DNA of 64,000 nucleotides from Thermoplasmatota archaeon (GTDB lineage: Archaea; Thermoplasmatota; JAKEGO01), in contig JANQNK010000003.1 of NCBI GenBank assembly GCA_028279595.1, positions 224,001-288,000 on the forward strand. Direction: 5' to 3'. Numbering within the stretch: position 1 is the stretch's first letter; the number at the start of each line of letters is the position of its first letter. A program made the position numbers and the translations under genes. This document shows, in pieces, positions 24,333 through 47,323 of this stretch. The notes under the pieces were generated by a model. The model did no database searches. It worked only from the letters and a program-made list of their open reading frames with translations, and had not been told where the DNA came from.

Positions 24333-24500
24333 GCTCCCCCGGAATCGTATGCATGGGGCAGTGAAAAGGTTATCCATCAGCCATTTCTAAACTATTAAAT
24401 ATCCAGGCGTCGATTGACATGTCGTTCCGGGACCCCGCCTGGGTGCGAGGTGCCCCAGGGCTATCGCCGTACGGGGTCCGGACCGATGCAGGTGACGAAA

Positions 24501-27500
24501 ATGAAGAGAGCGATAACTATCTGTCTGCTAGCGGTCGCATTCCTTGCGGTCGTTGCGATGTTCATGCCCGGAGCGGAGGCAGTGAACAGGACGTGGACCG
24601 GGTCCACGAACACTGCCTGGGCGAACGGCAACAACTGGAACCCGACAGGGGTTCCGTCGTCGTCCGACCACGTGTTCATACCGAACGTTGCGAACGATCC
24701 GGTGATCTCCGTGGACGCCGAGACGAACAACCTCAGGCTCAATGCCTCGGCACACCTTTCCGTCGATGGGGCGACCCTCGACGTGAACGGTGAGACGTAC
24801 ACGGTGTCGGGCTCGGAGATCGACCTCACCAACAACGCGACGATCGTACATTTCCGCGGGATCGTCCATGCCTACGGAGCGGTGAACTGTTCGGATTCCA
24901 CGACGACGGTCCACTGTCATGACAGCTTCTACATGCACAACAACTACATCTCCGGTCTCTCGACGATCTATGCCGAGGGTTCCGGTTCGTATTACTTCTA
25001 CCAGGGCGGGGCGACGAAGGATTACTACGACTTCGTCGTCAACGGCTCGTCGACCGATGCCAGGATGTCCGCCCCATGGTCGGTCGTAAAGAACAACCTG
25101 ACTGTCGCCGACGGGGTCTTCGACCCGTACGCGCGGACGACCTTGATACGGGGCAACCTCATTGTGGACGGCGAGCTCGAGATGTCCCGGGCGGCGGACG
25201 AGATAATCGTCAAGGGCGACATCCATTTCAACAACGGGAGCACGACCGACGTGTCCACTGGTGTCCTGTCCTGCTGGGGCGAGTGGTACATCAGGGACAC
25301 AGCGGAGATGCAGTTCACTGGCAGCCACGAGAGCATCATGAACGGGTCGACGATGACATGGCACACGATGGAGTGCCACAGTCCGGACAGTCACTTCAAC
25401 ATGCTCTCGATCGAAAAGACTGGGAACAACGTGGAACTCGCCGGAACGGAGCCCGTGAACGTCACTGACGATCTCAGGATAGAAATGAGCGTCCAGAACC
25501 AGATATTCGACGTTTATCACGGAGGCCTTGTCGTCCATGGAGACGTCGCAGTGAACAGGGGAGGTTTCGAGTTCTGGGGCGTCGGCGTGGCGGACGTCAT
25601 GGGAAATGTGACCGTGGCAACGGTCGGGAAGATCCGTTTCGAGAACGTGGGACGCCTGAACGTCGGTCGGAACCTCACCCTCAACGGAGACCTGTTCTTC
25701 AGCCACACCAACGGAGGCACGACCTCCGTGGATGGTATCACCTGGATCCAGAACGGCGGGCAGATCGTATACAATAGCCAGTTCGGCGAGTTCCTCGCCG
25801 GGGGTGCGATCTACCTCAACAACACATGCTCGATCGACATGTCCGCTGGCAATGCATACCTGAACCAGACCCTGAACAGCTTCTTCTATGTCAGGGACCT
25901 GGTCAACCTCAGGAACGACGACGCCCGCCTCAATATCGGACACATGTGGATAACTGGCGGCGGACATGTGAATTGCCATGGTTACTCTCCCGAGATCGGA
26001 GTGAAGAACCACTGGTACGATTACGGGACGTTCACCCACGGTACGTCCACCGTGACCTTCACCGAGACCTGGACATTCCTATACAACGAATTCGCCTTCT
26101 GGAACGTCGTCGTCGACAAGTTATGGAAGATGCAGCTGAGCGATGACACGACGATCAACGGGACGTTGGTGGTCGACGGCGGGACGCTGGACATCTACGA
26201 CGAATCCCTCAGGGTCAACGGCAGCGGACCACTCAACTATGGAGGTACGGATTACACCGGTCTCGTCGTCCTCGACGGCGCGATCGAGATGGACGACGCA
26301 GCGGACTTCATAGAGGTCAACAGCGATGTCTACTGGGGTGCAGACTCGACGGCCATCATTACCAACGGAACCATCAACTGTACCGGCAACTGGACCTTCG
26401 CTTCCGGGTCGGATGTCAACCTGACCGGAAGGAACACCGTCAACCTCAACGGGAGTGTGAACCTGGTCTTCTCTGGAGACCTCGACCGTTACCTCTGGAC
26501 CAATTCGACATCGTCGAGTTTCAACCACCTGAACATCACCGGATGGGGGACCATTTTCGGTGACGAGGTCGTCACATGGATCGACGGTACCGAGACGGTG
26601 GTGGTCGACGGCCACCTCAGCAAGTTCGGTAGAGGTGGCGACGTGATCATGGGCTCGTCGGCGTTCGAGGTCTGGGGGAACGTCAACATCTCCGAGGGTC
26701 TGATATGGCTCGACGGTCCGGGCTCCATCGACGTACACGGGGACCTGTTCGTCTACGATGACATCGGAGGAGTTTCCGATGACGGGACCTTGTGGTTAGG
26801 GGCGAACGCCACAAAGACCGGCGAAGGCACAGTCGATGTGGCCGGAAGGTTCTGGACCTCGGGCAGAGTTTCGTTCCGCGGGCTTGGCGGGAACCTCACG
26901 GTTGCCGAGTACCTCACCATTGCGTCAATGGGCGGCCTGGAGTTCGTCGGGACCGCCGGGAACATCTCGACCCATACGATCTACAAGGAAGGGGGAAGCG
27001 GATTCGCGATCTACTCCAACGATACCACGATCGACGTGCACGACCTCATAGTCAACACGAGCATGGTGGTCGGGAAGCGTAAGACCCCGACATTCCTGAT
27101 CTCGGGCGACTTCGACTGGGCGGGTTCCCTGTGGATCGAGCCAGGCCACTCCGAGTTCAGGCTCGATGGGACCGGGAGCCAGACAATGGACAGCGGGTTC
27201 ACCTACTGGGGCGTCGTCATCGACAAGCCGTCCGGGGATGCGGACTGGGATGGTCACATCTTCGTGGAGAGCTACTTCGCGGTACACCGGGGCGGTTTCG
27301 AGCTGGACAACAAGGTGTTGAGGGTGTACGGCAATGGAACGACGGCGGACGGTTACTCCAGGGGGACCGGTCTCTTCCGCGGGTTCATCGTCGAGGACGC
27401 CTACTTCAACATGACCACTGCCAATGCCAACCTGTGGGTACGGACGGTATATCTCTTCTCCGGAAGCAAGGGCAACTTCAGCGACGGTCAGATCCATTGC

Positions 27501-30500
27501 AACTACTACTGGTACGTCGAGGTCGGGTCGTTCATCAACATGACCGGGACGACGACATACTTCGACGGCGATCCGAGCAGTTTCCTCTATGTCTATTCCC
27601 CAGTGTTCAGCTTCTACCGCCTCATCATCGCGAAGGACAGCGTATACGCCATGACCATCGGGAGCATCCACACTCAACTAGTGGTGGTGAAGGACAACCT
27701 CACGGTGAACATGGGCGGCTACGAGGACCCGGTGAACGTCAGGGGAGACCTGTTCGTGGGCGGTCATCTCGAGGTCAGGGAAGGCGTGATGCACTTCTAC
27801 GACGAGAGCAACACGAGGGTCAAGAGGGGCATGTACATCAATGGCGATGGTTCATCGAAGTTCGGTCATGCGATCGGTGGCGCGAACCTCGACATAGGCG
27901 GGGAGCTCTCCATCGCGGGTTACGGTATGCACTTCAACGACACCGGAGGGAACGTGACAGTGGGCTGCACCACGTGGATCGATTCCGTCCTCGGCTTCAA
28001 CGCCGAGAACGGGAACGTCACGACGTTCTCGACATACGAGATCGAGGTGAATGGTACTGGTATCCTTTACGTCGCATCCAACGAGACCTACATCTCCACC
28101 GACCTGGACATCAGCTATTCCGGGACGATCCGGGTCGAGGACGAGGCGAAGCCGAGGTTCACTGTGCGCGATGACTGGCACTCCGGCGGCGGGACCTTCC
28201 AGTCCGGCATGAGTGAGGTCTGGTTCGAGGGGGACCTCTACCAGTACATCTCACCCGAGCGGTTCTGGATCGTCGTGATCAATAAGACCGACTTCAACGC
28301 CTATCCATCCGGAGCGAACCTGACCATCAAGTCTTGCCTCTTCGTCCTCCAGGGGGTCTACGATGCATGGTTGCACACGACCCACGTCAACATGTCATCG
28401 CCTGGATTCCTCTACAACGGGACCTACTACACAGGTTTCGTCAACTACGGCGGAGTCCTCAGGATGACCAATACCCAGAGCGTCATGGACATCAACGGTC
28501 CAACGGTTTGGGGTCCGATGAGCCAGGACGACATCCAGGATGGGGAGATGTACTGCAACGGTTCCTGGAACTTCACGGCCGGTTCCCAGGCGAGCCTCGA
28601 CAACATCACCGTGACGTTCGACGGGAACAACTACGACACGTACTTCAACTGGGTGACCGTCCAGTCCCACAGCACGATGAGCTACTTCACGGACCTCGTC
28701 CTGTCGAGGGATTCGGGACAGGGGGTCGCTCTCGATCATCCTTCGACAGTACCCCTTCTGGTGGAGGGGGATATCGTCTCAAGTGGCAATTTCGCAGTCC
28801 TCCATTCGACCATGAACGTCACTGGCAGCTGGAACCAGACTGCAGGGCTCCTCATGGTGAACACGGAATTCTGGAACGTGGTCGGAACGACCCACCTGTT
28901 CATCGGCGGTGATCTGTACGTTCAATCCGGTGCTACCCTCTATTACCAATCCAATTACTTCAACAGCACCATAGAATGTGCGGACCTGGTGATAAATGGA
29001 ACTCTCACGGTCTCCTCGATGCTACACCAGAACTGGCTGAACGCGAGCGGGTCATCGGTCATCAGCGGGATCGCCAACATATTCGGTCTCGGAGCCTGGA
29101 ACACAGGCGGAACACTGACCATCGCCACGGGAGCCTCAGTCTACGTTTCCGGAAACAGATACCACATCAATGCATCACTATCCGTGATTCTGCAAAGCGG
29201 TACCAACACAAGGCTCTACTCCGACGGCGTACACCTGAGGGCGGGAGCCTATTTCTCCCTCTTCGGCACGCTAGACTGCGATGGCTTTACCCCCGAGATA
29301 CATGTCGGCGCCGACTGGTCGTCCAGTCCGGGAGCCACCTTCGATCCGGGAGAGAGCACGGTCTTCTTCGAGGGCACTGGTGTAAGCACTACCATCGACA
29401 ACACCGAGAGGTTCCACAACATCCACGTCGACATCGTATCAAGGAACCTCACCCTCGTGACGGGCGACATATCATGTCACGACCTGAACCTGACCTCGGG
29501 GACGATCGAGCTCGACGATCACAGCCTGACGGTCCGAAACGACTTCTTCGGTCACGATAGGTTCGAGATGGACGGCGATATCTGGTTCAACGTCAGCGGC
29601 AACGTCAACTGGCACAACGGGAGTGTTGCTGATATCATCCGGGGCTCCTGCATCGTTTCCGAGGACCTCTTGATAGATAACGGAGCAGACGTAACCTACG
29701 GACCATCGTCACTCCTGAGGTTCAACAGCAGCAGAACGAGCCGATGGTTGAACAACGATCCAGGATCGGACTTCGGCGATGTCGAGATCAACAAATCGAG
29801 CCGTCTGTATGCCGTCCGGGGCTATACGATATACATGGACAGCCTCGCTGTCAACAACAAGGGATCCCAACTCCAGATACACCTGCAAACGCAACGCATC
29901 GTCGTTGATGGAGACCTTGAACTCATACGGGGAACACTCAACCCGCACACTAATTCGAATGTCACAGTGAACGGGACATTGACATGCCATAATCGATCAT
30001 TCCTCGATCTCGAATGGACAACCCTCAATGCAGATACCCTCATCATCGATGGGAAGATGTACCTCAATGGTACTTCAGGCGATGTCTGGGTCGGTGGCTC
30101 TGCATACATCCCGGGAAGCGAGATCATTTGGAACAGGGTCTCCGATATGATCGTCCTTGGTGATATGTGGGTCAACATCACGGGCATCGTGAACATGAGT
30201 GCCTCCTCCGGCTACCTCGAGATATTCGGGGACCTCAACATATACGGCCTCGTCGATCTGTCCAACGATTACGCCACCCTGACCGTGCATGGAGACCTGC
30301 AGGTCTGGCCACTTGGCGGCGGGACACTCAGAGTAAGGGACAATGCGGAACCGGATATCTATCTGTACGGTCACTTCAACGGCCTCGGACCGGCCTCTGT
30401 CTTCGAACCAGGCCATTCGGTATTCCATCTGATGGGCCCCAACTATCAGAGCCTCGAGGACCGGTTCGATTACTGGGGCGTCGTGGTCGAGAAGAACGGC

Positions 30501-32903
30501 TCATACGCGCGGTTCGAGGGGAACCCGGGAAACACCGCCCACATCCGATCGTTCCTTGTGATCGAGACGGGAACGTTCAACCTGATGGACGCTTCTGTCA
30601 TGGTCAATTCCAGCGGCAGCGGTCACTCGATATGGCCAGACTCCTTCGTGGGTTTCGCGAACTACGGTGGATACTTCGTCATGTCGAACGAGAACGGGTC
30701 CCTGGATGTCAATGGACCCGTCTACTGGGGCGATACCTCCACCGAATACATCACTGATGGCGACATCCACGTATCTGGCAATTGGCACATAGAGAGCGGA
30801 GCCCTCATGACCCTGACCGACAAGAACCATGTGCATTTCGATGGGAACGAGTCTGCGATGTACTACGGATACGCCAACGGCTCCCAGTTCCGGAACGTCA
30901 CCGTCGAGAAGGACCCGACCCTTGCCCTGACCTTCGGGGGCGGGATCATGAACGTCACCCACACATTGACGATCGATTCGACGGCTGGTATCGACGTCTG
31001 GAACTCGACCCTCGAGGCATTCGGCATCGTCCACGACGATGGCGAGTTGAACGTCTCAGGACCTGACGGAGAGCTGTACGTCTGGGACACCATCGCGATG
31101 GACAGTACCTCTACTCTGTCCATGAGCAACGATTCCTATGCCTACATCAAGGACTTCACGGGAATGGGCACGATCTGGCTCGGGAACAGGACGAACCTGA
31201 CGATAGTGGACGATCTGTGGATGCCCACCGGAACCCTGAATCCAGGGAGGTCCGTCGTACACTTCACGGGAGGAGCAGCCACGAGCATCGATATCGGTGG
31301 GTCCTTCCACGACCTCACCGCGGATAAATCCGGGATAACCCAGGTCGGTCTGAACGACGAGACCTTCATCGAGGGCGACCTGACTATACTGATGGCCGCC
31401 TTCTACCCGCAGGCTCACAACATCCACATCGGCGGCGACTTCTACTGCTCACCCTCCGCGTGGTTCGCCCAGGCCTCATCCGATCCGGGAGAGGTGATAT
31501 TCAATGGCATGAAGGTCCAGTACCTCAGGTCCGGCGGAACGAACTCCAACCACGACTTCCAGAACATCACGGTCAAGGGAACCGGCACCGAGGTCCGTGT
31601 CGTCGATCACTCGATGTCGATAACTGACAGACTGACGATCGGGAGCGGGACCGAGTTCAGGTTCGCCGCTGACAACGAGACGTTCTACACCGGATCCGGC
31701 GGCGTGATCAATGATGGCGTGTTCAGGGTCATCTCAGACCACGGTCCCATCGATTTCGAGGTCTATGCAGGAAGCGACATCATCAACAACGGGTCGATGC
31801 ACCTCGTGGATGCGTCATGGACAAGAGCAATTCATGTCTACTCCTCGTCACCGGGGACGCAGTGGAACCTGATCGACAACACCGCCTCCAAATCGGTTCC
31901 GAACGTCTTCCACGCGAACGTCTCGGACTCCGACGCCACAGGTGGGAACACCATCTATGCTGGCAGCGGGTACAACCATGACGACGGGAACAACGACAAC
32001 TGGGTGTTCAGCGCCCGCATCAACCTCTGGTTCCACGACAACGACGGATACTCGATGAACCTCACCGTTTACAGGTTCGACAGTCCGGTGACCATCTCCG
32101 GGACCACCGGAATCTGGGACTGGGCCGACGAGAACAGAACCGCCACGCTCCAGGATGAGTACGTCATCACCACGAACGAGGAGAGGTACTACACCGAGGA
32201 CACCACATCATGGACGGTGACGTCCGAGATCAACGCGGACGTATACTACTACCGACAATGGAGGCCGTCGATCACGCTCGACGGGACCGACACCAGTCAC
32301 ACGGTCGGAGCATACTACACCGCTCTAGGCGGTACTACCAGCCAATCCAGCCAACACACCTCATGGTCGAGGTGGGTCGACAACGGCACTGCGCTGAGCT
32401 TTGACAAGGACGCCTCCGGGACGCCGGCTAGACATACAAGCGAAGACTTCAGTGCGTCCCCGTGGGACCCCGTTGGCTCTGCGTTCACGCGGACCGTTTC
32501 CTATTCAGGGAACGACGTGCCGGAGCTCTACAACGGATCGATGGACCCGTCCGGAGGGAACGTCACGACCATGTTCAACTTCACGGTCGAGTACTGGGAC
32601 GCGGACAACGACACGCCTTTGTTCGTCTATGTGAACATCGACGGGACGAACTACAGCATGGACAAGGTCGACTCAGGCGATAACGACTACACTGACGGCT
32701 GCGAATACTACTACGAGACCCTTCTGTCTGGCGGAGACCACGACTACTACTTCATCTGCAACGACTCGTATGCAACGAACCAGACATCTACAGAGAACAC
32801 CGGTACGATCATTCCCGAGTTCGGGATCCTGCCAGTGATGATCTCGATGATGGCCGTTGGCGCAGCAATATCCTGGAGGCGGAGGAGAAAGGGTCTCCGA
32901 TGA
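24501..32903 (+). CDS. Giant secreted beta-solenoid surface glycoprotein with PEF(G)-CTERM tail (paralog A, about 2800 aa)
   Basis: GGTGA SD then MKRAITICLLAVAFLAVVAMFMPGAEA signal peptide, WTG...W...NW.P.GVP cap, recurring ~360-aa beta-rich modules, many N-x-S/T sequons, C-terminal IIPEFG-TM-WRRRRK. Confidence 0.88.
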   Translation: MKRAITICLLAVAFLAVVAMFMPGAEAVNRTWTGSTNTAWANGNNWNPTGVPSSSDHVFIPNVANDPVISVDAETNNLRLNASAHLSVDGATLDVNGETYTVSGSEIDLTNNATIVHFRGIVHAYGAVNCSDSTTTVHCHDSFYMHNNYISGLSTIYAEGSGSYYFYQGGATKDYYDFVVNGSSTDARMSAPWSVVKNNLTVADGVFDPYARTTLIRGNLIVDGELEMSRAADEIIVKGDIHFNNGSTTDVSTGVLSCWGEWYIRDTAEMQFTGSHESIMNGSTMTWHTMECHSPDSHFNMLSIEKTGNNVELAGTEPVNVTDDLRIEMSVQNQIFDVYHGGLVVHGDVAVNRGGFEFWGVGVADVMGNVTVATVGKIRFENVGRLNVGRNLTLNGDLFFSHTNGGTTSVDGITWIQNGGQIVYNSQFGEFLAGGAIYLNNTCSIDMSAGNAYLNQTLNSFFYVRDLVNLRNDDARLNIGHMWITGGGHVNCHGYSPEIGVKNHWYDYGTFTHGTSTVTFTETWTFLYNEFAFWNVVVDKLWKMQLSDDTTINGTLVVDGGTLDIYDESLRVNGSGPLNYGGTDYTGLVVLDGAIEMDDAADFIEVNSDVYWGADSTAIITNGTINCTGNWTFASGSDVNLTGRNTVNLNGSVNLVFSGDLDRYLWTNSTSSSFNHLNITGWGTIFGDEVVTWIDGTETVVVDGHLSKFGRGGDVIMGSSAFEVWGNVNISEGLIWLDGPGSIDVHGDLFVYDDIGGVSDDGTLWLGANATKTGEGTVDVAGRFWTSGRVSFRGLGGNLTVAEYLTIASMGGLEFVGTAGNISTHTIYKEGGSGFAIYSNDTTIDVHDLIVNTSMVVGKRKTPTFLISGDFDWAGSLWIEPGHSEFRLDGTGSQTMDSGFTYWGVVIDKPSGDADWDGHIFVESYFAVHRGGFELDNKVLRVYGNGTTADGYSRGTGLFRGFIVEDAYFNMTTANANLWVRTVYLFSGSKGNFSDGQIHCNYYWYVEVGSFINMTGTTTYFDGDPSSFLYVYSPVFSFYRLIIAKDSVYAMTIGSIHTQLVVVKDNLTVNMGGYEDPVNVRGDLFVGGHLEVREGVMHFYDESNTRVKRGMYINGDGSSKFGHAIGGANLDIGGELSIAGYGMHFNDTGGNVTVGCTTWIDSVLGFNAENGNVTTFSTYEIEVNGTGILYVASNETYISTDLDISYSGTIRVEDEAKPRFTVRDDWHSGGGTFQSGMSEVWFEGDLYQYISPERFWIVVINKTDFNAYPSGANLTIKSCLFVLQGVYDAWLHTTHVNMSSPGFLYNGTYYTGFVNYGGVLRMTNTQSVMDINGPTVWGPMSQDDIQDGEMYCNGSWNFTAGSQASLDNITVTFDGNNYDTYFNWVTVQSHSTMSYFTDLVLSRDSGQGVALDHPSTVPLLVEGDIVSSGNFAVLHSTMNVTGSWNQTAGLLMVNTEFWNVVGTTHLFIGGDLYVQSGATLYYQSNYFNSTIECADLVINGTLTVSSMLHQNWLNASGSSVISGIANIFGLGAWNTGGTLTIATGASVYVSGNRYHINASLSVILQSGTNTRLYSDGVHLRAGAYFSLFGTLDCDGFTPEIHVGADWSSSPGATFDPGESTVFFEGTGVSTTIDNTERFHNIHVDIVSRNLTLVTGDISCHDLNLTSGTIELDDHSLTVRNDFFGHDRFEMDGDIWFNVSGNVNWHNGSVADIIRGSCIVSEDLLIDNGADVTYGPSSLLRFNSSRTSRWLNNDPGSDFGDVEINKSSRLYAVRGYTIYMDSLAVNNKGSQLQIHLQTQRIVVDGDLELIRGTLNPHTNSNVTVNGTLTCHNRSFLDLEWTTLNADTLIIDGKMYLNGTSGDVWVGGSAYIPGSEIIWNRVSDMIVLGDMWVNITGIVNMSASSGYLEIFGDLNIYGLVDLSNDYATLTVHGDLQVWPLGGGTLRVRDNAEPDIYLYGHFNGLGPASVFEPGHSVFHLMGPNYQSLEDRFDYWGVVVEKNGSYARFEGNPGNTAHIRSFLVIETGTFNLMDASVMVNSSGSGHSIWPDSFVGFANYGGYFVMSNENGSLDVNGPVYWGDTSTEYITDGDIHVSGNWHIESGALMTLTDKNHVHFDGNESAMYYGYANGSQFRNVTVEKDPTLALTFGGGIMNVTHTLTIDSTAGIDVWNSTLEAFGIVHDDGELNVSGPDGELYVWDTIAMDSTSTLSMSNDSYAYIKDFTGMGTIWLGNRTNLTIVDDLWMPTGTLNPGRSVVHFTGGAATSIDIGGSFHDLTADKSGITQVGLNDETFIEGDLTILMAAFYPQAHNIHIGGDFYCSPSAWFAQASSDPGEVIFNGMKVQYLRSGGTNSNHDFQNITVKGTGTEVRVVDHSMSITDRLTIGSGTEFRFAADNETFYTGSGGVINDGVFRVISDHGPIDFEVYAGSDIINNGSMHLVDASWTRAIHVYSSSPGTQWNLIDNTASKSVPNVFHANVSDSDATGGNTIYAGSGYNHDDGNNDNWVFSARINLWFHDNDGYSMNLTVYRFDSPVTISGTTGIWDWADENRTATLQDEYVITTNEERYYTEDTTSWTVTSEINADVYYYRQWRPSITLDGTDTSHTVGAYYTALGGTTSQSSQHTSWSRWVDNGTALSFDKDASGTPARHTSEDFSASPWDPVGSAFTRTVSYSGNDVPELYNGSMDPSGGNVTTMFNFTVEYWDADNDTPLFVYVNIDGTNYSMDKVDSGDNDYTDGCEYYYETLLSGGDHDYYFICNDSYATNQTSTENTGTIIPEFGILPVMISMMAVGAAISWRRRRKGLR
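32511..32903 (+). repeat. Shared C-terminal Ig-like stalk + PEFG-CTERM module (further copies start at 39995, 45262 and 46940)
   Basis: N..PEL.NG..DP..GN..T..NFTV.Y.D...D.P.FVY.NIDGTN..M.K...GDHDYYF...TGT..PEFG occurs in four consecutive genes. 32 nt are identical between 32736-32767 and 45487-45518. Confidence 0.9.
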
Positions 32904-32917
32904 GGTCGTGTCGGTCC

Positions 32918-33002: not shown

Positions 33003-33091
33003 TCAGGCCAACGAGGTCTTAAGTGTCCGATCTCTCCCACCCGCCCATCGTGACCCGTGCAGGTGAGAGTCCATCGACGTTGTGTCCAGTC

Positions 33092-33109
33092 TATAACAGT
33101 TATATAACT
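33092..33109 (+). promoter_or_regulatory. TATA region of paralog B overlapped by the palindrome TATAACAGTTATA
   Basis: Sequence CTATAACAGTTATATAACT; a related motif occurs at 57602-57639. Confidence 0.55.
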
Positions 33110-33181
33110 TCGAATCGATACCCATCCAGGTGACCGTCGGGTGGTCTGGGGTATCGCCCGGTCGGTTGAACGGGTGATGAT

Positions 33182-39100: not shown

Positions 39101-40378
39101 TCGCTCTCCGTCAAGAACAACATTACTGTCATGGACCTCTCCATGCTCTGGATAAAAGCGGACAACATGACATTGTACACCGGTGAGGACGGCCTATGGA
39201 ATGACGGCTCCTTCCTCTTCGAAGGCCCGAAAGGGAAGAACTCGATCGTGTTCTACGCCGGGACCAATGTGACGACCGATGGCTACTTCGTCATCACGGG
39301 GAACCCGACCTACAGGACGATAGTCAGATCGTCATCTGCGGGCACCCAGTGGAATTTCAACGATTCGACCCCCGAGCAGTCCTTGCCATCGTTCGATCGC
39401 ATCCGGGTCCGGGATTCGGATGCCACCTCCGGAGACACCATCTACGCTGACGGGACGAGCGTCGATGCTGGCAACAATGACAACTGGGCCTTCGGGAAGC
39501 CGCTGACCCTGGACCTGTCGGGACTCGAGGGTCAATACGCGAACCTGACTGTCGAGCAACAGGGCCTTACGACCTACGTCTACCTTACGGACGGTATCAC
39601 CGAGTCCTGGGCCGACAGCGGCACGACAGCGACTCTCGTGGAAGAGTACTCCGTTTCATCGACAGAGAGGTATTACACCGAGGACACCACATCATGGTCG
39701 ATGTCCGGGAACGTCTCTGCGAGCGTGACCTTCTATAGACAGTGGAAGCCGACGATCACTCTTGACGGAACCGACGCGAGCCACACAGTGACGGCGTATT
39801 ACACGGTCCTGGGTGGCAATTCGAGCCAATCGGGCCAGCACACCTCCTGGTCCAGGTGGGTGGACAACGGTTCAGCACTGAGCTTCGACGAGTTCGCGAC
39901 CGGTGATCCCGAAAGGCACACGGGCGAGGATTTCGACATCCCGCCATGGGATCCGTTGACATCCGCTCTGGTCTACACTCTCGACTACGCCGAGAACGAG
40001 GTCCCGGAGCTCCACAACGGGAACATGGACCCCGCTAGCGGGAACCTCTCGACGCTGTTCAACTTCACCGTCGAGTACTGGGACTCGAACGATGACGCGC
40101 CATTGTTCGTCTACGTCAACATCGACGGCACCAACTACACGATGAACAAGACCGACCGGAGCGACCACGACTACACCGACGGTTGCGAGTACCACTACGA
40201 GACCTACCTCTCCGGTGGCGACCACGACTACTACTTCATTGCGAACGACACGTATTCGACGAACCAGACGGCGATGGAGAGCACTGGAACGGTCATTCCC
40301 GAATTCGGTCCGACCGTGGTCATCGTATCGATGATGGCCGTCGGCGTCGCCGTGATCTGGAGGCGTAGACGCCGGTAG
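33182..40378 (+). CDS. Giant secreted beta-solenoid surface glycoprotein with PEF(G)-CTERM tail (paralog B, 2398 aa)
   Basis: Signal peptide, same WTGSTNTAWA.GNNWNPTGVP cap as paralog A, same modules, VIPEFG-TM-WRRRRR. Confidence 0.88.
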   Translation: MRMLRAILCLMLVLAVVVVLAPMSAEAETKVWTGSTNTAWAQGNNWNPTGVPGSTDVVYIPDVSNDPVVQADATVKMVQINDSAVLTIDGATFNVTNRIIIKSDVADGSLELSNDLNGVNVESIYNYGSILVNSGRTPMVNLSHLYSYSGSTIKSGFSTFTFVGAGNNTAYMDVIDPLYNVIIDAPTATLMMNGTYGLDADGQFRIIDGKLDPTGKEMVVSYLYCYDEIEMETGDWLHVTGDANFYNGSYLHGDNGTLTIDDDLYIGRGSTIELEGSHHFNITEFHWGSNLNLHEDSAQFNDVTIDKGYGHVALNTNMTINGTLTVSRGVFKVIDVDSLSVRYLVVHSNGHVQQSRDSNVTVTEDVSLYSGSRYELGNGTNDWHGGSLAIGRDIDISGRLWLFGRGGEIVLTRHMRIYGSGNLTFYGGNLTTVGPSSGAYTYGGSDTYIHSSNTTITFDTYTHYAGCRWWVNRSASPTIVFKSYIYNAGTVTAYTPGLSTIVAYGNYVASNLDSDIPVRNLVINKTSGHFKPSYGPGTLNISGSLLLIDGELDIRGEEGYNIVVNGSDGIMHEGQMYRGFANIGGELLMETWNDSLEVSGGVYWGPDSEATVDTGWIHCRGNWTFAAGSSINLTGNNTVRFFGGMMGYSYQLWMNSSASSFCNVLHGMGMTSSFVNGTVPMVIDNNLTFTSLNAMFVEDGAELIVWGDANVTSILYVNEGGDVYIHGNLTVAGGPGRLDFGLNSTSDYGGSLHVNGWMSVWNPVNFYMDGGNLTVDGNATIHRTGYIMFKTHGGNMSAGNISINDGGALRIYTTNTTIDTAQLRSYGELNISNSVRPVLRISGRFNWLNGDFRLGRSEVRAVGTSDQRFEDSHPYWGLVIDKPSGNLTFEAPFPIVAQSYIGVAQGTLAVGGYTIQCEGEGSFGTDGYVIGVNRYPGFIMDGGVLDMNHTSGVLEVDRFLRWFDGTANGSSGTIITDASWTVYAGVDADIQCPVVMTSNDVYARTFTMHSSDFTFNDLIINTSTRMTQTSYSSHPIHVTGDLWINNTDNYDEFNITKGLVVDGDINIRIGSLVLSNGAEVTVGGDVEQLPARWNGWLRIYNGSMDIGGYYHCDGWGVDVSYHGGSMDITGPLWIDSQLPPAGPGFYVGQKPGYSFDLTAEFIRINATGYMNLSSDNTRIVSQADLINHGSLRSWGDAMPDIVTYDDIEGSGTFNLGHSSIWYEGDNAFQDVRDLPYWNLVINKTSGVARSQSDISVESCLFIMNGTYDMNGYKLWVNSSGNSFIWNGTHYSGFVNYGGILFYQTSDEELHVNGPVSWGPGVNQTFDMGTIYVNGSWEFMAGSQVNLTGTHLVYFWGRNWFGPYISWAPIYSNSTTSWFNDITIDRDFGFGQYTSEKSTETVVVKGDMDHDGGLFEIYASTMYVVGNVDNRGQSFYVEGTTVFGNASLTVDGDFYSQSGSSLNVFGSASYAWSRMTCSYLYVNGSLNLKSYSSVHAGENIWISGSIDYDQAGFQWAEVISDGNIYVSSPGNVDMSGIGRSHLNTTSGFIVVYNGATLDLRGNAQVTAWTHFHPYGTVICTGWWPEINVGNAWYSDTSGDFRPGWSQVTFFKAGTSYIKDTEDFADIILNKTSGLLYLYDGDLNCTDLDIESGTFDLNGYNLTVTDDLTVWGSLEMDHDGWINVTHEVNWMNGSTEDITNGTIQCDGLWYIEDGADMTFEYPVHVYLNASTDVIVDDPDSYFDNLTFRLMGGGLTAYINGTEALNATSVLKIDDKVTVRLIGGSIEATQLLLYYASELNVSSPDSTLHVWDYLYMDSFTELMLDNGSYAMVQDFFPAQDIYVMNGSNLTVVDDLIGGRILSRDGDVYIDDGASTSLNTKGRFHNLTFGGGASVYARMWIGGDLRILGGTVYPQDNDVGILGDYYCSKTAAFRPANGSRLVFNGTGRQFMETGGTDSNHELWDLIINHTTLIVQNGSLSVKNNITVMDLSMLWIKADNMTLYTGEDGLWNDGSFLFEGPKGKNSIVFYAGTNVTTDGYFVITGNPTYRTIVRSSSAGTQWNFNDSTPEQSLPSFDRIRVRDSDATSGDTIYADGTSVDAGNNDNWAFGKPLTLDLSGLEGQYANLTVEQQGLTTYVYLTDGITESWADSGTTATLVEEYSVSSTERYYTEDTTSWSMSGNVSASVTFYRQWKPTITLDGTDASHTVTAYYTVLGGNSSQSGQHTSWSRWVDNGSALSFDEFATGDPERHTGEDFDIPPWDPLTSALVYTLDYAENEVPELHNGNMDPASGNLSTLFNFTVEYWDSNDDAPLFVYVNIDGTNYTMNKTDRSDHDYTDGCEYHYETYLSGGDHDYYFIANDTYSTNQTAMESTGTVIPEFGPTVVIVSMMAVGVAVIWRRRRR

Positions 40379-40545
40379 ACCAGTACCGATACGGTCAAAA
40401 TGACCCAGGACCCCGATCCGGAGGAATTACACCTGTCCAGTCATGTCAAGTACTTGCAGTAAGCATAAATACAGCCAGGTCGATATCTCAAGACGACTGG
40501 ACCCGGGGCGACTGAACGTGGGTCCTGTCATGAATGGGTGATCAG

Positions 40546-43500
40546 ATGCGTGGATGGAGACATTTTGGATTCGTATTGATAGTGATAGCGGCCCTCACAG
40601 TATTGGCCCTGCCAGCGGTCGAGGGCGAGATCAAGGATTGGACCGGCACGACGAACTCGAACTGGGGGACCGCCTCCAACTGGGACCCCTCCGGGGTTCC
40701 GACGTCGTCGGACAACATCTACATCGACGACCAGACGAACGATCCGGTCATTCAGACTGATGCTGTGGCATATGGCATCTACATAAATGGGTCCGGGATC
40801 CTGGACATCGACGGTGCGACCCTGAACGGCAGTTACATACAGGTAGAGGACGGGGGCACGCTCGACCTGACCAACGACGCGACGATCGTCAACCTTCGTC
40901 AGAGCCTTCACCTCTACGGGAAGCTCGATTGCGGAGCTTCCAACACACCCGAGATCAACCTCAGGCGCATCTACATGACCTCCACGTCATCGACCAGTCC
41001 AGGCTGGTCGACGGTTACCTTTGTCGGAGGAAACCCTGGAAGTGTCTTCAACAACGGATACGAGGAGCTGTGGGACGTTGTGATCGACGAGGACACCGCG
41101 GTCAATGTCACCAGTGGAGACCTCATCATATTGAACGACTTCACTATAACCAATGGCTCCTTCGACCCTAACGGTCATCTCGTGGAGGTCGGGGATAACC
41201 TCCGATGCTTCGACAGGATAGTCATGAACGATCTCGACGACAACATATCGATCGATGGCAGGTCATACTTCTATTCTGGATCGAACCTCTCCGGCGACGA
41301 TGGTGTACTCCATCTGAAGGATTGGACTACGTTCGAGATCGGCTCGAAGGCGAACTTCACAGGGAAACATATGCTACTGTCCACAGGAGCGGGGGATATA
41401 TACTACGACATCTGGAGCCCCGATGTCAGGTTCAACAATGTCACGACCAACAAATCGAGCTCCTTCGTGGCCGTTAGAGGGTACCTGTGGGTCCACGAGA
41501 CGATCACGGTCGAGTATGGGTATTTCTATGTTCTCTACGGAGGCAATCCTTACAATGTTACGACGACCAATCTGACGATCCAGGACAATGGGATCTTCTA
41601 TCTCTACCAGTGGGCCACTGTGAACGTGACGAACGACATCGACATTCTCGACGGAGGAGAGATCATCCTCGGTCGGAGCACAACATGGGGCGGGACGTTG
41701 AACGCGAACAATGACATCTTTAGCTTCGGGGATATCACCTTCCAGACCGGTGGCGGCAATCTCAACGTGGGTGATGACCTGTTCATCTACTCAACAGCGA
41801 ACGTCACCATGCACGCGGGAAATATCACGGGAACGACGGACACCATCCTTTATCTCTATGGCGATCTCTACATCAATACCAACGATACCACGGTCTACTT
41901 CCACAATTGGTACATCTACGGTTCCAGCCAGATGTGGGTGGCAAACCAGGCGACCCCGGAGCTCCAGTGGTCCGGCATGATCTACGAGCAGGGATCGCCG
42001 AACGTGTGGCATCCCGGTCACAGCACGTTCATGGCGGTCGGTGTCAACTTCCCTGCTATCGACGCGAGGTTCTCATATTACGGTGTCGGCGTCAATCTGA
42101 CGTCCGGCTTCATGGCACCGGGATACGACGATATCCTGTACATCGATAGCCATCTGGTCATCATCAACGGTGCGTTCCGGATGAATGATAGGACAGTTCG
42201 TATCAACGGGTCCGGGTCCTACATGTACGATGGCATGGAATACACGGGATTCGCGAACATCGGCGGCGAGCTGACCATGGAGAGCGACGACGAGTACCTG
42301 ATGTCATATGGTCACGGCGGCGTCTACTGGGGCCCTGACAGCACCTCGGACGTCGATGCCGGTTCCATCAACTGCTCCGGCGATTGGGTGTTCGCAGCGG
42401 GTTCGGACGCAAACCTCAGGGGTACGAACATGGTAAGACAGCAGGACCTCGGGGTCGAGTCCACCTATTGGATCAACTCCTCGGACAGCAGCTTCCAGAA
42501 CGTCACCATCAATTCGATATTCGCCGCCTCGCATCTGAACGGGACGGAGACCATGGTGGTCAAGGGCGATCTCACGATAAACGGACTTACCGCCTTCGTG
42601 GTCGACGGCAACGATCTCGAGGTCCAGGGTGACCTCAACGGGACCGGCGGGAATCTGTGGGTCCTCGGAACTGACAATTCGGTCGAGGTCCAGGGGGATG
42701 CGTACATGATGGGTAGTTCCCTGAACCTGGGTCAGGCCTCCTCCTCGAGCGAGGGTGGGACCGTCGAGATCGATGGATATCTCTCGATCGACGAGGGTCT
42801 CAACTTCGAGGAGGGAGAGGGCGAGGTCACAGTAGGCGAGACACTGTTCGTATCATCGACCGGGGTCGTCTCCTTCGATGGTACGAAAGGGACGCTCACA
42901 GCAGGGAGCATGATCTTGAACAGTTCGAGCGACGTCAACCTCACCGGTTCAGGTGAATACGTGATCAACGTCCTGGGCGACCTGAGGATAAACGGAGTCC
43001 TCAACATGACCAACGATAACGCAATCCTGAGGGTCGGCGGTGACCTGATCCTCCCCGATGGCCATCTGGACTGCGGCCCCAAGTACGAGCCCGAGATATT
43101 CATTGGCGGCGACTTCGACTGGCTGTTCGGAGGTCTTAACTTCACCGCGGGTCACAGCACCGTGTTCATCGATGGATCCGGCGACCAGAAGATTGACAAC
43201 GACTTCCGCTTCTACGGTCTGGTCGTGAACAAGACCGGCGGTGAGATGTACTTCGAATGGAGCCATCCCGGCGATCGGGACATCCCGAAGTTCGAGTCCT
43301 TCTTCTTCATCGAGGCGGGCACCTTCAACATGAGGAACACGAGCATCAGGGTCTGCGGCAACGGGTCCGGTTACCAGGGAGTCGCACTCTACACCGGGTT
43401 CGTGAACCTGGGCGGCCACTTCGTAATGCAGAATGGATCGTCCACCCTAGAGGCTTTCGAGGACATCCTCTGGGGTTCCACTGCGACCGGGAACGTGACC

Positions 43501-45648
43501 AACGGGACAATCGTCGCCCATGACAACTGGATCGTCCAGGGCAACGGATACATGGAGCTCGGCGGCGACAATCTGGTCTTCCACAAGGGTGGCGATACTT
43601 CCCTGTTCAATTTCGTCGGCGAAGCCATCTTCAACAACTTCACGATGCGGAAGTGGTCGGACAACTACGAGACCTTGATCGTCGGTGAGGGCGGGATGAA
43701 CGTCACGAATCTACTGAACATCTATGGCGATTCCAACATGGAGGTCAGATCGAAGCTGGAAGCTACCTACATCGACCTGTATGGTAACTCCCTCCTCAAC
43801 ATGTCTTTCAACGTCAGCGAGCTGCGCGTCTGGGAGACGATCGAAACGAGCTCGGGTGCGGAGGTCCGCGTGGGAGACAACGCATATGCGATGACCCGGA
43901 ACATCACTGGAAGCGGGGACATATACCTTGGAACGAACACGAACCTGACGCTACGTCAGAACATGTGGATGAATCCGACCACAACACTGTATCCCGGAAT
44001 GTCCACTGTCTATTTCGGAGGCAAGAACACCACACAGGTACGACTATACAACGGTGGCTTCTACAATGTGATCGTCGCCAAATACCGGATCGGGAACAGG
44101 GCCGTCCTCATGTATACTGCTTCGGATTACTACATCGACGGGAACCTGACCCTGAGGAACGGTACCTTCTACTCAAATGGACGGATCTTCCACCTTAAGG
44201 GCAACTTTGATAACAACGGATGGTGCAGGTTCGATCCATCCCCGAGCGGATACTTCGTCTTCGACGGTGGTGGTACTCAGTACATCCAGACGGGCGGGGA
44301 CTTCGGTAATGTCGGATTCGAGGACCTGAGGGTGGAGTCGTCGACCCAGGTTATCGTCCAGAACTACTCGATGAGGATCGATGGAATACTCCTGATAGAG
44401 GGCGGTTCGGCGTACCAGTTCAAGTCAGAGGATGGTACGCTCACTCTAGGAGACCGCGGAATGTTCAATGATGGAACGTTCCATGTATGGCCCTCCTCCG
44501 GTAAGGGAAAGTTCGTCGTGACGGCCGGAACGACCGTGACGAACAATGCGACGATGTACCTCGTGGGAAACACCGAACAAGCGCCACTTCGCATCAGGTC
44601 CTCCTCGGACGGGACTCAATGGAACCTCGAGGACAACACCGCATCAGATCAACAACCTCACGTTCAGCGTGCCCTTGTCAAGGATTCCGACGCCAGCGGC
44701 GGGAACACAATCTATACATGGATGTACTGCGTGGACCAGGGCAATAACGAAAACTGGGTGTTCTCCCATCCGTTGACGATATACATCACCGGGCTCGAGG
44801 GACACGACGTCAATCTCACCTGGACCCAGAGGAACTCCACCGGTTCGGCACCGATTTCCTTTTCGGTCCTCGTGTTCTCGGACAACGACACCACCGCATC
44901 TATCGAGGACCTCTATACTGTATCATCCACCGAACGGTACTACACCGAGGATACGACGTCATGGGACGTGACTGATAACACGACCGTCTATGTCAACTTC
45001 TACAGACAGTGGAAACCGACGATCACCCTTGATGGCACCGATGCATCTCACACCGTATCCGCATACTACACGGCTCTCGGTGGGAACACCAGCCAGAGCG
45101 GACAGCACACGTCCTGGTCGAGGTGGTGCGACAACGGTTCCAGACTATCGTTCAGCAAGGACGCCACCGGATCTCCGCCGAGCCACACCAGCGAGGACTT
45201 CACAAGGGACCCATGGGACCCGCTAACGTCGGCACTCGTGAAGACCGTCTACTACGAAGGGAACGTCAAACCGGAGCTGAAGAACGGCACCATGGACCCG
45301 TCCGGCGGCAACCTGACGACGGTATTCAACTTCACCGTGGAGTATTGGGATGACAACAACGATATCCCGCTGTTCGTCTACGTGAACATAGACGGCACGA
45401 ACTACTCGATGGAGAAGGTCCAGAAGGGCGACCACGATTACACCGACGGTTGCGAATACTACTACGAGACCAAGCTGTCCGGCGGCGACCACGACTACTA
45501 CTTCATCTGCAACGACTCTTACGAGACGACCCAGACCTCGTCCGAATCCACGGGCACGATAGTTCCGGAGTTCGGGATGCTGACGGTATTGATCTCGGTC
45601 ATGATGGTCGGCGTCGCTGTCATGTGGAGGCGCCGTAGAAGACATTGA
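40546..45648 (+). CDS. Giant secreted beta-solenoid surface glycoprotein with PEF(G)-CTERM tail (paralog C, about 1700 aa)
   Basis: GGGTGA SD then ATG 40546, signal peptide, WTGTTNSNWGTASNWDPSGVP cap, fewer modules, IVPEFG-TM-WRRRRRH. Confidence 0.88.
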   Translation: MRGWRHFGFVLIVIAALTVLALPAVEGEIKDWTGTTNSNWGTASNWDPSGVPTSSDNIYIDDQTNDPVIQTDAVAYGIYINGSGILDIDGATLNGSYIQVEDGGTLDLTNDATIVNLRQSLHLYGKLDCGASNTPEINLRRIYMTSTSSTSPGWSTVTFVGGNPGSVFNNGYEELWDVVIDEDTAVNVTSGDLIILNDFTITNGSFDPNGHLVEVGDNLRCFDRIVMNDLDDNISIDGRSYFYSGSNLSGDDGVLHLKDWTTFEIGSKANFTGKHMLLSTGAGDIYYDIWSPDVRFNNVTTNKSSSFVAVRGYLWVHETITVEYGYFYVLYGGNPYNVTTTNLTIQDNGIFYLYQWATVNVTNDIDILDGGEIILGRSTTWGGTLNANNDIFSFGDITFQTGGGNLNVGDDLFIYSTANVTMHAGNITGTTDTILYLYGDLYINTNDTTVYFHNWYIYGSSQMWVANQATPELQWSGMIYEQGSPNVWHPGHSTFMAVGVNFPAIDARFSYYGVGVNLTSGFMAPGYDDILYIDSHLVIINGAFRMNDRTVRINGSGSYMYDGMEYTGFANIGGELTMESDDEYLMSYGHGGVYWGPDSTSDVDAGSINCSGDWVFAAGSDANLRGTNMVRQQDLGVESTYWINSSDSSFQNVTINSIFAASHLNGTETMVVKGDLTINGLTAFVVDGNDLEVQGDLNGTGGNLWVLGTDNSVEVQGDAYMMGSSLNLGQASSSSEGGTVEIDGYLSIDEGLNFEEGEGEVTVGETLFVSSTGVVSFDGTKGTLTAGSMILNSSSDVNLTGSGEYVINVLGDLRINGVLNMTNDNAILRVGGDLILPDGHLDCGPKYEPEIFIGGDFDWLFGGLNFTAGHSTVFIDGSGDQKIDNDFRFYGLVVNKTGGEMYFEWSHPGDRDIPKFESFFFIEAGTFNMRNTSIRVCGNGSGYQGVALYTGFVNLGGHFVMQNGSSTLEAFEDILWGSTATGNVTNGTIVAHDNWIVQGNGYMELGGDNLVFHKGGDTSLFNFVGEAIFNNFTMRKWSDNYETLIVGEGGMNVTNLLNIYGDSNMEVRSKLEATYIDLYGNSLLNMSFNVSELRVWETIETSSGAEVRVGDNAYAMTRNITGSGDIYLGTNTNLTLRQNMWMNPTTTLYPGMSTVYFGGKNTTQVRLYNGGFYNVIVAKYRIGNRAVLMYTASDYYIDGNLTLRNGTFYSNGRIFHLKGNFDNNGWCRFDPSPSGYFVFDGGGTQYIQTGGDFGNVGFEDLRVESSTQVIVQNYSMRIDGILLIEGGSAYQFKSEDGTLTLGDRGMFNDGTFHVWPSSGKGKFVVTAGTTVTNNATMYLVGNTEQAPLRIRSSSDGTQWNLEDNTASDQQPHVQRALVKDSDASGGNTIYTWMYCVDQGNNENWVFSHPLTIYITGLEGHDVNLTWTQRNSTGSAPISFSVLVFSDNDTTASIEDLYTVSSTERYYTEDTTSWDVTDNTTVYVNFYRQWKPTITLDGTDASHTVSAYYTALGGNTSQSGQHTSWSRWCDNGSRLSFSKDATGSPPSHTSEDFTRDPWDPLTSALVKTVYYEGNVKPELKNGTMDPSGGNLTTVFNFTVEYWDDNNDIPLFVYVNIDGTNYSMEKVQKGDHDYTDGCEYYYETKLSGGDHDYYFICNDSYETTQTSSESTGTIVPEFGMLTVLISVMMVGVAVMWRRRRRH

Positions 45649-45745
45649 TTTCCGACCGATCAGCGTCCGTGATCATACGTACGAGCTGCACATTTCAGTG
45701 GACACCATTATTAACGCTAATCACACTCACCGTATTGGTGTTAGA

Positions 45746-47323
45746 ATGAAGGCGGTGGTTCTTGGTAGTCTTGTTGTCCTTGCTGTTGTGTCCATAATGA
45801 TCATACCCACCGTTTCGGGAGACCAGGGTGACATCCTGTGGGATGAGACCTTCGGCGGTACCGATGAGGACCGGGGCAGGTACGCCACGGAAACATCAGA
45901 CGGCGGTTTCATCATGACCGGCGAGTCGAAATCATACGGTTCCGGGAACAGGGACCTTTGGCTCCTCAAGACGGACGAGAACGGGTCCGAGGAGTGGAAC
46001 GAGACCTTCGGCGGTTCAGGTGAGGACCTCGGCTTCGTTGTGCAAGAGACCTCGGATGGAGAGTTCGTGGTCTGTGGCTTCACGAGCCCTGGCACCAATA
46101 GGAACCAGCGGGATCTCTGGATAGTCAAGACGTTCGCTAACGGGACATTGAACTGGAGCCGGACCTACGGAGGGACCTCGCAGGAAGAGGGCCGTTTCCT
46201 CATAGAGACCGATGACGGTGGGCTGATTTTCACCGGATTCACCGGTTCATACGGTTCGGGAGGCTTGGACATCTGGGTGATCAAGACCTACGCCAACGGA
46301 ACGGAGCAATGGAACGAGACCTACGGCTGGCAGTACCGCGACGAGGGCCACTCCATCCGTCCTACGAGTGACGGTGGATACATATTGGGTGGCAGGGGTG
46401 CACCCCCAAGCGGCGGGGGCGGCCAGGACCTCGTACTAATGAAGATCGACGACGAGGGAACCCTCGATTGGACCGAAACATGGGGGGGCTCCGGAATGGA
46501 CGAGGCCTGGGACGCTCAGGAGATCGAAGGAGGGGACATCCTCGTTTCCGGCAGGACGTTCTCGTACGGTCAGGGAAATGGAGACCTGTATCTGATCAAG
46601 ACCGACGGCAACGGATCCGAGGAGTTCGAGAAGACCTACGGCGGCTCGAAGGAGGACCTCGGCAAGCTCTTCACCGAAACCCCGGATGGAAATTACGCCA
46701 TTATCGGCAGAACCCGTTCGTACGTTTCAGGAGGATCCAGCGACATAGACATCTGGCTCCTCGTCGTTGACAGCGATGGGGTCGAGATCGTGAACGAGAC
46801 CTATGCCGGGAACGGATGGGACGAGGCCAGGAGCATTCTCATGACCTCAGACGGCAACTACATCATTGCTGGTTCCTACGGCGATACAGACAGGGACGAG
46901 ACCCATTTCTGGCTCCTGAAGCTCGAGGGGCCTCCCCCGAACGTCGCTCCAGAACTCGTGAACGGGGACCACGATCCCAAGAACGGGAACACCTACACAT
47001 GGTACAACTTCACGGTCACATACAGGGACGCCAACAACGACACGCCTGCATTCGTCTACGCCAACATCGACGGGACGAACCATTCCATGGACAAGGTGAA
47101 CTCGACCGACGACGATTTCGTTGGCGGTGTGGACTATCATTACAGGACCCGGCTGACCGCCGGCGACCACGACTACTATTTCGTGACGGACGACGGTGTC
47201 CATACCAACTCCACCACTGTAAGGACCACAGGGACGGTGATCCCTGAGTTCGGGTCCCTTGCAGTAATGATCTCCGTGACCATGTTCGCCATGGTCCTCA
47301 TCTGGGCCAGACGGAGACGGTAA
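45746..47323 (+). CDS. Secreted beta-propeller protein with the same stalk and PEF(G)-CTERM tail
   Basis: Signal peptide from ATG 45746, about 7 repeats of W..T(F/Y)GG...D.G....ET.DGG....G...S.G.G..D.WL.KTD..G, then the shared stalk and VIPEFG-TM-WARRRR. Confidence 0.85.
   Translation: MKAVVLGSLVVLAVVSIMIIPTVSGDQGDILWDETFGGTDEDRGRYATETSDGGFIMTGESKSYGSGNRDLWLLKTDENGSEEWNETFGGSGEDLGFVVQETSDGEFVVCGFTSPGTNRNQRDLWIVKTFANGTLNWSRTYGGTSQEEGRFLIETDDGGLIFTGFTGSYGSGGLDIWVIKTYANGTEQWNETYGWQYRDEGHSIRPTSDGGYILGGRGAPPSGGGGQDLVLMKIDDEGTLDWTETWGGSGMDEAWDAQEIEGGDILVSGRTFSYGQGNGDLYLIKTDGNGSEEFEKTYGGSKEDLGKLFTETPDGNYAIIGRTRSYVSGGSSDIDIWLLVVDSDGVEIVNETYAGNGWDEARSILMTSDGNYIIAGSYGDTDRDETHFWLLKLEGPPPNVAPELVNGDHDPKNGNTYTWYNFTVTYRDANNDTPAFVYANIDGTNHSMDKVNSTDDDFVGGVDYHYRTRLTAGDHDYYFVTDDGVHTNSTTVRTTGTVIPEFGSLAVMISVTMFAMVLIWARRRR

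Follow-up and report, generated by a model that had tools for sequence, protein, structure and literature searches.

Old paralogous genes of an uncultured Thermoplasmata archaeon encode probable surface rods with differing numbers of beta-helix modules

Introduction

Four co-oriented open reading frames (ORFs), here named A, B, C and D, are located on the forward strand at 24.4–47.3 kb of a 64,000-nucleotide stretch of DNA (contig JANQNK010000003.1, positions 224,001 to 288,000; this whole stretch is referred to as the window). The source is an uncultured Thermoplasmata archaeon with an assembled genome of 2.29 Mb (86% complete). A, B and C were analyzed as a set of modular surface proteins and compared with described systems of similar build. 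Passengers of type Va autotransporters (Vag8 of Bordetella, Ag43 of E. coli, Fap2 of Fusobacterium) are likewise giant single-chain right-handed beta-helices, with the N-terminal tip distal and the C-terminal end proximal to the cell. Fap2 of Fusobacterium is a 47-nm rod adhesin of 2905 residues, in which the rod serves as spacer and binding occurs at the tip (PMC12397386). In contrast to autotransporters, the rods described here have neither a beta-barrel translocator nor an outer membrane, and the anchor is a PEF-type tail following a stalk. No sequence relation to autotransporters was detectable in Pfam (neither an autotransporter family nor a beta-barrel translocator was matched, and the C-terminus consists of the stalk and a single helix), and six distinct module classes of about 360 amino acids (aa) are present. 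Giant bacterial beta-helix surface proteins (P0008–P0155) are true sequence relatives of the module and many have the N-terminal cap in common with it, but they differ in carrying a type IX tail or FN3-like ends, in lacking stalk segments 1 and 2 and the PEF tail, and in having no Pfam family.

Substrates of archaeosortases (PGF-CTERM with ArtA, PEF-CTERM with ArtC, and PEFG-CTERM) are exported, sequon-rich proteins with a three-part C-terminal signal, as are the proteins of the window. In the ArtA/PGF-CTERM pair, the tail is cut off and a lipid anchor takes its place. Published work applies the term PEFG-CTERM to ammonia-oxidising Thaumarchaeota, and PEF-CTERM is paired with ArtC (PMC5244752). 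Compared with these known substrates, the tails described here are below the PEFG-CTERM cut-off and do not match PEF-CTERM, the candidate enzyme reaches 51 instead of 100 bits, and ArtE was not found. Adhesin-like surface proteins of gut methanogens (Methanobrevibacter, Methanosphaera) are described as multigene families with complex domain architecture (PMC11532034). Compared by description only, they are alike in being multigene archaeal surface proteins. Other repeat and anchor types are carried by the gut-methanogen proteins, for which, to our knowledge, neither the PEF tail nor a series of 360-aa modules is known. The rods are a variant of known surface beta-helix proteins of the adhesin type and not a new kind: a module common to giant bacterial surface proteins is combined here with a stalk of archaeal type and an anchor of sortase type. 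The cell surface of uncultured Thermoplasmata is little known, and the genes offer a clean, testable case of how long surface rods are constructed by an archaeon.

Module structure and predicted fold

According to the initial annotation, A, B and C share their ends (N-cap, C-cap motif, stalk and tail) and differ in module number. This was confirmed, as were the counts of five, four and two full modules (~340–385 aa) in A, B and C, respectively, each followed by one short module. Cutting at the marker coordinates (Table 1) resulted in 14 segments with lengths of 362/368/354/381/354/278 aa (A), 341/358/361/386/258 aa (B) and 338/378/282 aa (C). In single-sequence comparisons with phmmer, segments scored up to 181 bits between paralogs and up to 66 bits within one protein, whereas composition-shuffled modules reached a maximum of 2.7 bits. 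Because many segment pairs scored near zero, the homology of all 14 segments rests on a chain of strong links. The ~360-aa periodicity was also recovered with independent 120-aa tiles of A, which re-matched A, B and C at offsets of ~360 aa. BLASTP self-comparison of A yielded the diagonal only, because the modules are too diverged (16–37% inter-module identity). A hidden Markov model (HMM) built from the same modules is circular and served only for placement of borders. Across the 14 modules, only five positions (G, S, G, G, F) are invariant, and none of them is acidic or basic. Past the short last module, a further solenoid stretch of ~240 aa with a module-like start (profile positions 1–66) extends to the C-cap, in which it ends.

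No curated family covers the proteins, in agreement with the initial annotation. NCBIfam returned nothing, and Pfam returned only borderline matches to G8 (PF10162, gathering threshold 22.9 bits; B 30.6, C 23.1, A 21.2 bits); C is the only one with a single stretch that passes this threshold alone (N-cap, residues 50–148). The module itself is not an orphan. A profile search of 1.84 billion cluster representatives gave 1,882 matches at E <= 1e-3 and 209 at E <= 1e-30. Most of the listed matches are giant proteins that look bacterial by their ends, and the commonest module spacing in the relatives is 300–350 aa. Of four bacterial relatives of the module that were scanned, three (P0022, P0039, P0041) have a Por_Secre_tail; in A–D this family (PF18962) was absent from the Pfam results. 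Beyond one weak G8 match, no Pfam family was found over the solenoid in ten relatives scanned. The W-x-G...W...NW cap starts 50 of the 161 proteins examined (the window's own included), and a few carry the C-cap motif. A word-based search retrieved only B, P0006 and one distant protein. The sub-family with stalk and tail is small and comprises A, B, C, P0159, P0006, P0009 and fragments from G002, a genome of the same order. Among 40 related genomes, strong matches were obtained in one and weak single matches in two. One further relative, the partial protein P0015, bears the label 'Thermoplasmata archaeon'.

For structure prediction, module 2 of C was modelled with AlphaFold2 using the 14-module alignment. 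The model is a right-handed beta-helix of high confidence (predicted local distance difference test (pLDDT) 91.3, predicted template modelling score 0.89), all-beta with ~43 short strands, which bears out the solenoid fold proposed initially. When the model was compared with 48,161 PDB chains by VIA-align, the top 50 matches were all right-handed beta-helices. The best match was the Vag8 passenger (7AKV; Z 22.1, 311 residues aligned, root-mean-square deviation 3.9), followed by Ag43b (7KOB; Z 17.8) and then by tapirin, TibA, HMW1 and tailspikes. Foldseek against PDB gave no match for the module model at E <= 0.001, and searches of the ESM Atlas with the module and stalk segments 1–2 gave only unnamed clusters or scores < 0.9. 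A second model covered residues 872–1704 of C (four-row alignment, pLDDT 58). Here, the first 510 residues form a beta-helix, and Vag8 aligns over residues 1–366, spanning the border between the short module (mL) and the terminal segment at 282/283 (Z 20.2). A beta-helix that continues across a module junction was another expectation of the initial annotation; it holds at the sole junction modelled (mL/terminal), where confidence is low.

The solenoids of A, B and C comprise ~2450, 2040 and 1345 residues, respectively. Rod lengths were estimated with two scalings, the dimensions of Fap2 (2905 residues for 47 nm) and ~25 residues per 0.48-nm turn. By analogy, the rods would be roughly 40–47 nm (A), 33–39 nm (B) and 22–26 nm (C) long. 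The products are single-chain rods, for which the term filaments, used in the initial annotation, is not supported.

Module classes and orthologs

A maximum-likelihood tree was calculated from 37 modules of A, B, C and relatives, with a midpoint root for drawing only. The tree resolved six positional classes, five of them with bootstrap values of 92–99%; the short terminal class L forms no supported clade and is defined by position and length. The class series is 1-2-3-4-5-L in A and its ortholog P0159, 1-2-3-4-L in B and its ortholog P0006, 1-2-L in C, and 1-4-5-L in the metagenomic relative P0009. In G002, an N-terminal fragment contains 1-2 and the first part of another module, in which the contig ends, and a C-terminal fragment contains 3-4-5-L; the two fragments together contain all six classes. 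In the simplest reading of these series, the shorter paralogs would have lost internal modules from a six-module form (class 5 in B, classes 3–5 in C), although the direction (loss, not gain) can only be inferred because the root is a midpoint. The short module of B was also considered as a hybrid of classes 5 and L, but the comparison is ambiguous: identity is 34% with A-m5 over its first 207 residues and 30% with A-mL over its whole length.

A and P0159 are collinear (60% identity) with five full modules and one short module each; identity is 42% in m1, 54–63% in m2–m5, 76% in mL, and 80% and 91% in stalk segments 2 and 3. B and P0006 (62% identity) have four full modules and one short module each, with 40% in m1, 62–70% in the middle modules, 66% in mL, and 78% and 76% in stalk segments 2 and 3. 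Module number is the same within both ortholog pairs, and their alignments contain 0–6 gap columns per module. The alignments indicate that length is tightly kept while the sequence drifts, the module at the tip being fastest and the foot slowest. The combination of whole-module differences between paralogs, nearly indel-free orthologs and a gradient from tip to foot makes rod length a plausible selected trait. In P0006, stalk segment 3 lacks 24 residues of an otherwise highly conserved domain, either by real deletion or by an assembly or gene-call fault.

The rate of synonymous substitution (dS) is at least 1 in every region, stalk included. The paralogs are old, because synonymous sites are saturated. 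Recent gene conversion as a source of stalk conservation was rejected, since synonymous sites are saturated in the stalk too; judged from these comparisons, the stalk is conserved by purifying selection (nonsynonymous-to-synonymous ratio 0.12–0.17).

Stalk and gene D

The stalk is a C-terminal region of ~300 aa with three segments. The last 215 residues are 70–75% identical among A, B and C, as compared with 33–40% in module 2. Within the genome, segments 1 and 2 are confined to A, B and C, and segment 3 is a repeat domain of ~86 aa that is also present in D (E 1e-24). The same domain recurs in tandem in several further giant ORFs, and a 252-aa protein carries it together with the tail TGTVIPEFG (Table 1); it is a common building block of the surface proteins of this genome. 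Segment 3 resembles an accessory module of beta-sandwich type in the multimodular xanthanase PspXan9, with a match to residues 810–920 (6FHJ; E 7.7e-16). Searches with the stalk gave no related loci on genome contigs and only two distant loci on metagenome contigs, with the ERYYTEDT unit and without the solenoid. A metagenomic ORF on L016 (Table 1) contains the ERYYTEDT...YY-x-QYK unit of stalk segments 1/2 without the module, and a stalk element therefore exists outside the family.

Gene D had been described as a beta-propeller head placed on the last stalk domain. This description stands: similarity to the CylK beta-propeller was detected for the head (E 2e-12), which also shows repeated blades of ~50 aa.

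C-terminal tail, archaeosortases and export

All four proteins have a Sec-type signal peptide and a C-terminal tail composed of (I/V)PEFG, a hydrophobic helix of ~20 residues and RRRR. Throughout the genome, ~16 ORFs with a PGF-type tail and ~20 ORFs with a (V/I)PEF-type tail were found; a pre-tail motif, NAPEKVPEF, is carried by many of the PEF-tail proteins. Two archaeosortase genes were detected with PF09721, as the initial annotation had anticipated. One encodes ArtA (141 bits, cut-off 75), and the product of the other passes the general exosortase/archaeosortase signature TIGR04178 (42.7 vs 23 bits). ArtE (TIGR04124, cut-off 95) was not found in this 86%-complete genome, the only match being a secondary one of 34.7 bits on the ArtA protein. 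The generic three-part archaeosortase signal of motif, helix and basic cluster is thus present on ~20 ORFs, together with two archaeosortases. In G002, module proteins likewise end in a VIPEF tail, and the second archaeosortase has an ortholog there (48% identity). The tail had been assigned to PEFG-CTERM; its likeness to a sorting signal and the presence of archaeosortases were upheld, but it is not a member of that family. More likely, the tail is a PEF-type signal outside the present classes, and the sortase that acts on it would be the divergent, ArtC-like enzyme. This PEF-type tail class, the ArtC-like archaeosortase and the beta-helix module family (~1,900 representatives) are so far missing from the curated models.

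A contains 89 N-x-S/T sequons, B 88 and C 54, compared with 38±6, 31±5 and 24±4 in composition-matched shuffles. Heavy N-glycosylation of the rods is likely on this count.

Proposed function and alternatives

The old paralogs A, B and C probably code for surface rods that are exported, anchored at the C-terminus and active as adhesin or spacer. The proteins would be exported by Sec and N-glycosylated. The IPEFG-helix-Arg tail would be cut and a lipid anchor added by the ArtC-like archaeosortase, by analogy with ArtA/PGF-CTERM. From the membrane outward, the conserved foot region of ~300 aa would be followed by one continuous right-handed beta-helix, built from six ancient, non-interchangeable classes (1-2-3-4-5-L in the order of the chain) and with the N-terminal cap as its far tip. 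The three rods would thereby hold one kind of tip (cap, m1, m2) at three distances from one kind of foot (L, C-cap, stalk), and in D the shared foot domain and anchor would carry a propeller. The role is most likely adhesion or spacing, whereby the rods would touch particles, other cells or the surface of a host. The gradient from tip to foot, the kept lengths and the lack of an invariant charged residue across the modules agree with rods whose binding tip is displayed at set distances, as in an adhesin or spacer. Fast change at the tip and slow change at the foot would be expected where the former contacts varying partners outside the cell and the latter a constant component of the cell.

Several observations weigh against the proposed anchored rods or their mode of action. 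Continuity of the helix was modelled at one junction only, with pLDDT < 50 at residues 272–281, and the last 320 residues of the second model (the 'stalk') have pLDDT < 50, so that no fold is assigned to the stalk. Against PEFG-CTERM (TIGR04296, cut-off 25 bits), the tails of A, C and D score 10.2, 12.6 and 14.2–18.0 bits and that of B gives no match; PEF-CTERM (TIGR03024) does not match any of the four 40-aa tails even at E up to 10. ArtC (TIGR03762) is the best family of the second archaeosortase, at 51.1 bits and below the cut-off of 100, and the co-occurrence of PEF tails with an ArtC-like enzyme rests on two genomes. The gene downstream of the module protein in G002 is not a paralog. The ratios of nonsynonymous to synonymous rates (dN/dS), 0.12–0.17 in stalk segments 2–3 vs 0.40–0.56 in module 2, are unreliable since synonymous sites are saturated, and fast change of the tip may reflect relaxed constraint rather than partner-driven change.

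Alternatively, the rods could be structural parts of the envelope, i.e. of a glycoprotein coat or layered glycocalyx whose thickness they set without a specific partner. The 2.2–2.9-fold excess of sequons, the lengths strictly kept between orthologs and the highly conserved foot, which points to a constant component of the cell as docking site, are all in keeping with this. It is nonetheless unlikely, as a core envelope part would not be expected to be rare in the phylum (strong matches in 1/40 related genomes, weak single matches in two), and a fast-changing tip better fits an outward-facing interaction.

A further reading is that the rods are a fixed set of molecular rulers. One tip would then be held at three set heights (~25, 35 and 45 nm), indel-free across genera as the distance to the partner surface itself matters, and the foot would dock all rods and D to one envelope component via the unclassified PEF-type archaeosortase system. 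We regard this reading as doubtful; if true, the partner surface would be a host, prey, a neighbour cell or layers of the glycoprotein coat.

It is rather improbable that the tail is a plain C-terminal membrane anchor, by which A–D would remain type I membrane proteins, neither cleaved by an archaeosortase nor linked to a lipid. The tail is indeed below the cut-off of every sorting-signal model, and the second archaeosortase, itself below the ArtC cut-off, is encoded on another contig of this genome (G000:C14:105384–106079), away from A–D. Against this, (V/I)PEF is found at a fixed distance from a helix and Arg cluster in ~20 otherwise unrelated ORFs, the motif is kept in the orthologs and in G002, which retains the ArtC-like enzyme too, and the two tail classes (PGF, PEF) match the two sortases of the genome.

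It is very unlikely that the modules are a string of carbohydrate-active enzymes akin to pectate lyases or tailspike depolymerases, in which case the proteins would be surface-bound and degrade polysaccharides instead of being passive rods. Many structural matches at Z 13–17 are lyases, epimerases or tailspike depolymerases, and stalk segment 3 resembles an accessory module of PspXan9, but beta-helices all have this fold whatever their function, and the best matches are non-enzymatic passengers (Vag8 at Z 22, Ag43b). Furthermore, none of the residues that all 14 modules share is acidic or basic, and no glycoside hydrolase or lyase family was matched by the proteins in Pfam or NCBIfam. A contact-dependent toxin or two-partner-secretion filament was rejected, as there is no toxin or two-partner-secretion domain and the C-terminus is anchored.

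Gene coordinates and neighbourhood

Likely starts of gene A are ATG 24486 (database version, P0160) and ATG 24501. For gene B, ATG 33182 is preferred, as the database start (P0005, 2376 aa) removes the signal peptide. The order from longest to shortest had been pointed out in the initial annotation; A > B > C (> D) is real but uninformative alone, as three items descend by chance in 1 of 6 cases. Intergenic gaps are 278 bp (A–B), 155 bp (B–C) and 49 bp (C–D). TATA-like AT-rich stretches were located by eye 35–110 bp 5' of each start (24393–24405, 33090–33115, 40456–40475 and 45700–45712), and would make separate promoters for A–D possible, rather than one operon. The only sequencing run that matched the window DNA was one coral metagenome, possibly the sample from which the genome came; the matches listed included no run of RNA.

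Table 1. Coordinates of genes A–D, their parts, neighbouring genes and further loci. Positions refer to the window unless a contig or locus name is given.
Feature	Coordinates	Strand	Description
Gene A	ORF open 24414–32903; ATG 24501..32903	+	2829 aa open frame; 2800 aa from ATG 24501
Gene A layout	24501..32903	+	Signal peptide, N-cap, modules 1-2-3-4-5-L, terminal solenoid and C-cap, stalk, tail
A N-cap	24582..24950	+	W-x-G...W...NW...P motif; weakly G8-like
A modules m1–m5 and short mL	24951..31241	+	Borders 24951, 26037, 27141, 28203, 29346, 30408, 31242
A terminal solenoid segment with C-cap at end	31242..31988	+	SSS-GTQWN ... DSDA ... GNN-NW-F
A stalk region	31989..32822	+	Three segments; segment 3 is a beta-sandwich-type domain
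A tail	32823..32900	+	IPEFG, hydrophobic helix, RRRRK
Gene B	33182..40378	+	2398 aa; modules 1-2-3-4-L
B modules m1–m4 and short mL	33644..38755	+	Borders 33644, 34667, 35741, 36824, 37982, 38756
B terminal solenoid segment with C-cap	38756..39466	+	
B stalk region and tail	39467..40375	+	Tail IPEFG-helix-RRRRR
Gene C	40534..45648	+	1704 aa; modules 1-2-L
C modules m1, m2 and short mL	40999..43992	+	Borders 40999, 42013, 43147, 43993; m2 42013–43146
C terminal solenoid segment with C-cap	43993..44730	+	Helix continues from mL in model
C stalk region	44731..45558	+	Stalk1 44731–45000, stalk2 45001–45300, stalk3 45301–45558; best-conserved part of protein
C tail	45559..45645	+	VPEFG, hydrophobic helix, RRRRRH
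Gene D	ORF 45698–47323; likely ATG 45746	+	525 aa from ATG 45746
Gene D layout	Propeller ~45830–46942; stalk3-type domain 46982–47236; tail 47237–47320	+	Signal peptide; beta-propeller; stalk3-type domain; IPEFG tail
Sensor protein	7601–11920	-	PAS/GAF-rich, 1439 aa, with HisKA_2 and HATPase
Sensor protein	15309–20918	-	PAS/GAF-rich, 1869 aa
ABC-transporter genes	21175–24377	-	ATPase (22643–23395) between two ORFs without family match (473, 304 aa); divergent from A
Regulator	47499–48122	+	207 aa, HTH_10 (bacterio-opsin-activator type)
Giant subtilase	49011–57599	-	2862 aa, exported; 12 Big_7 and CARDB, DUF4350, Big_3_3 and PKD-type domains
PQQ-like propeller protein	57755–61345	+	
Big_7 repeat protein	61486–63999	+	
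Stalk3-domain loci, G000 (this genome)	C1:146671–152448, C10:12919–19083, C2:15667–19434, C4:146739–150374, C18:271615–272373		
Loci listed with the two tail classes and two archaeosortases	L001:1306–2439	-	
Loci listed with the two tail classes and two archaeosortases	L002:1408–2268	+	
Metagenomic ORF with stalk unit	L016:7810–10698	+	963 aa, cut at contig end

The regulator is situated between D and the giant subtilase and could regulate either neighbour. Together with the giant subtilase, the PQQ-like propeller protein and the Big_7 repeat protein form a surface-protein island on the contig.

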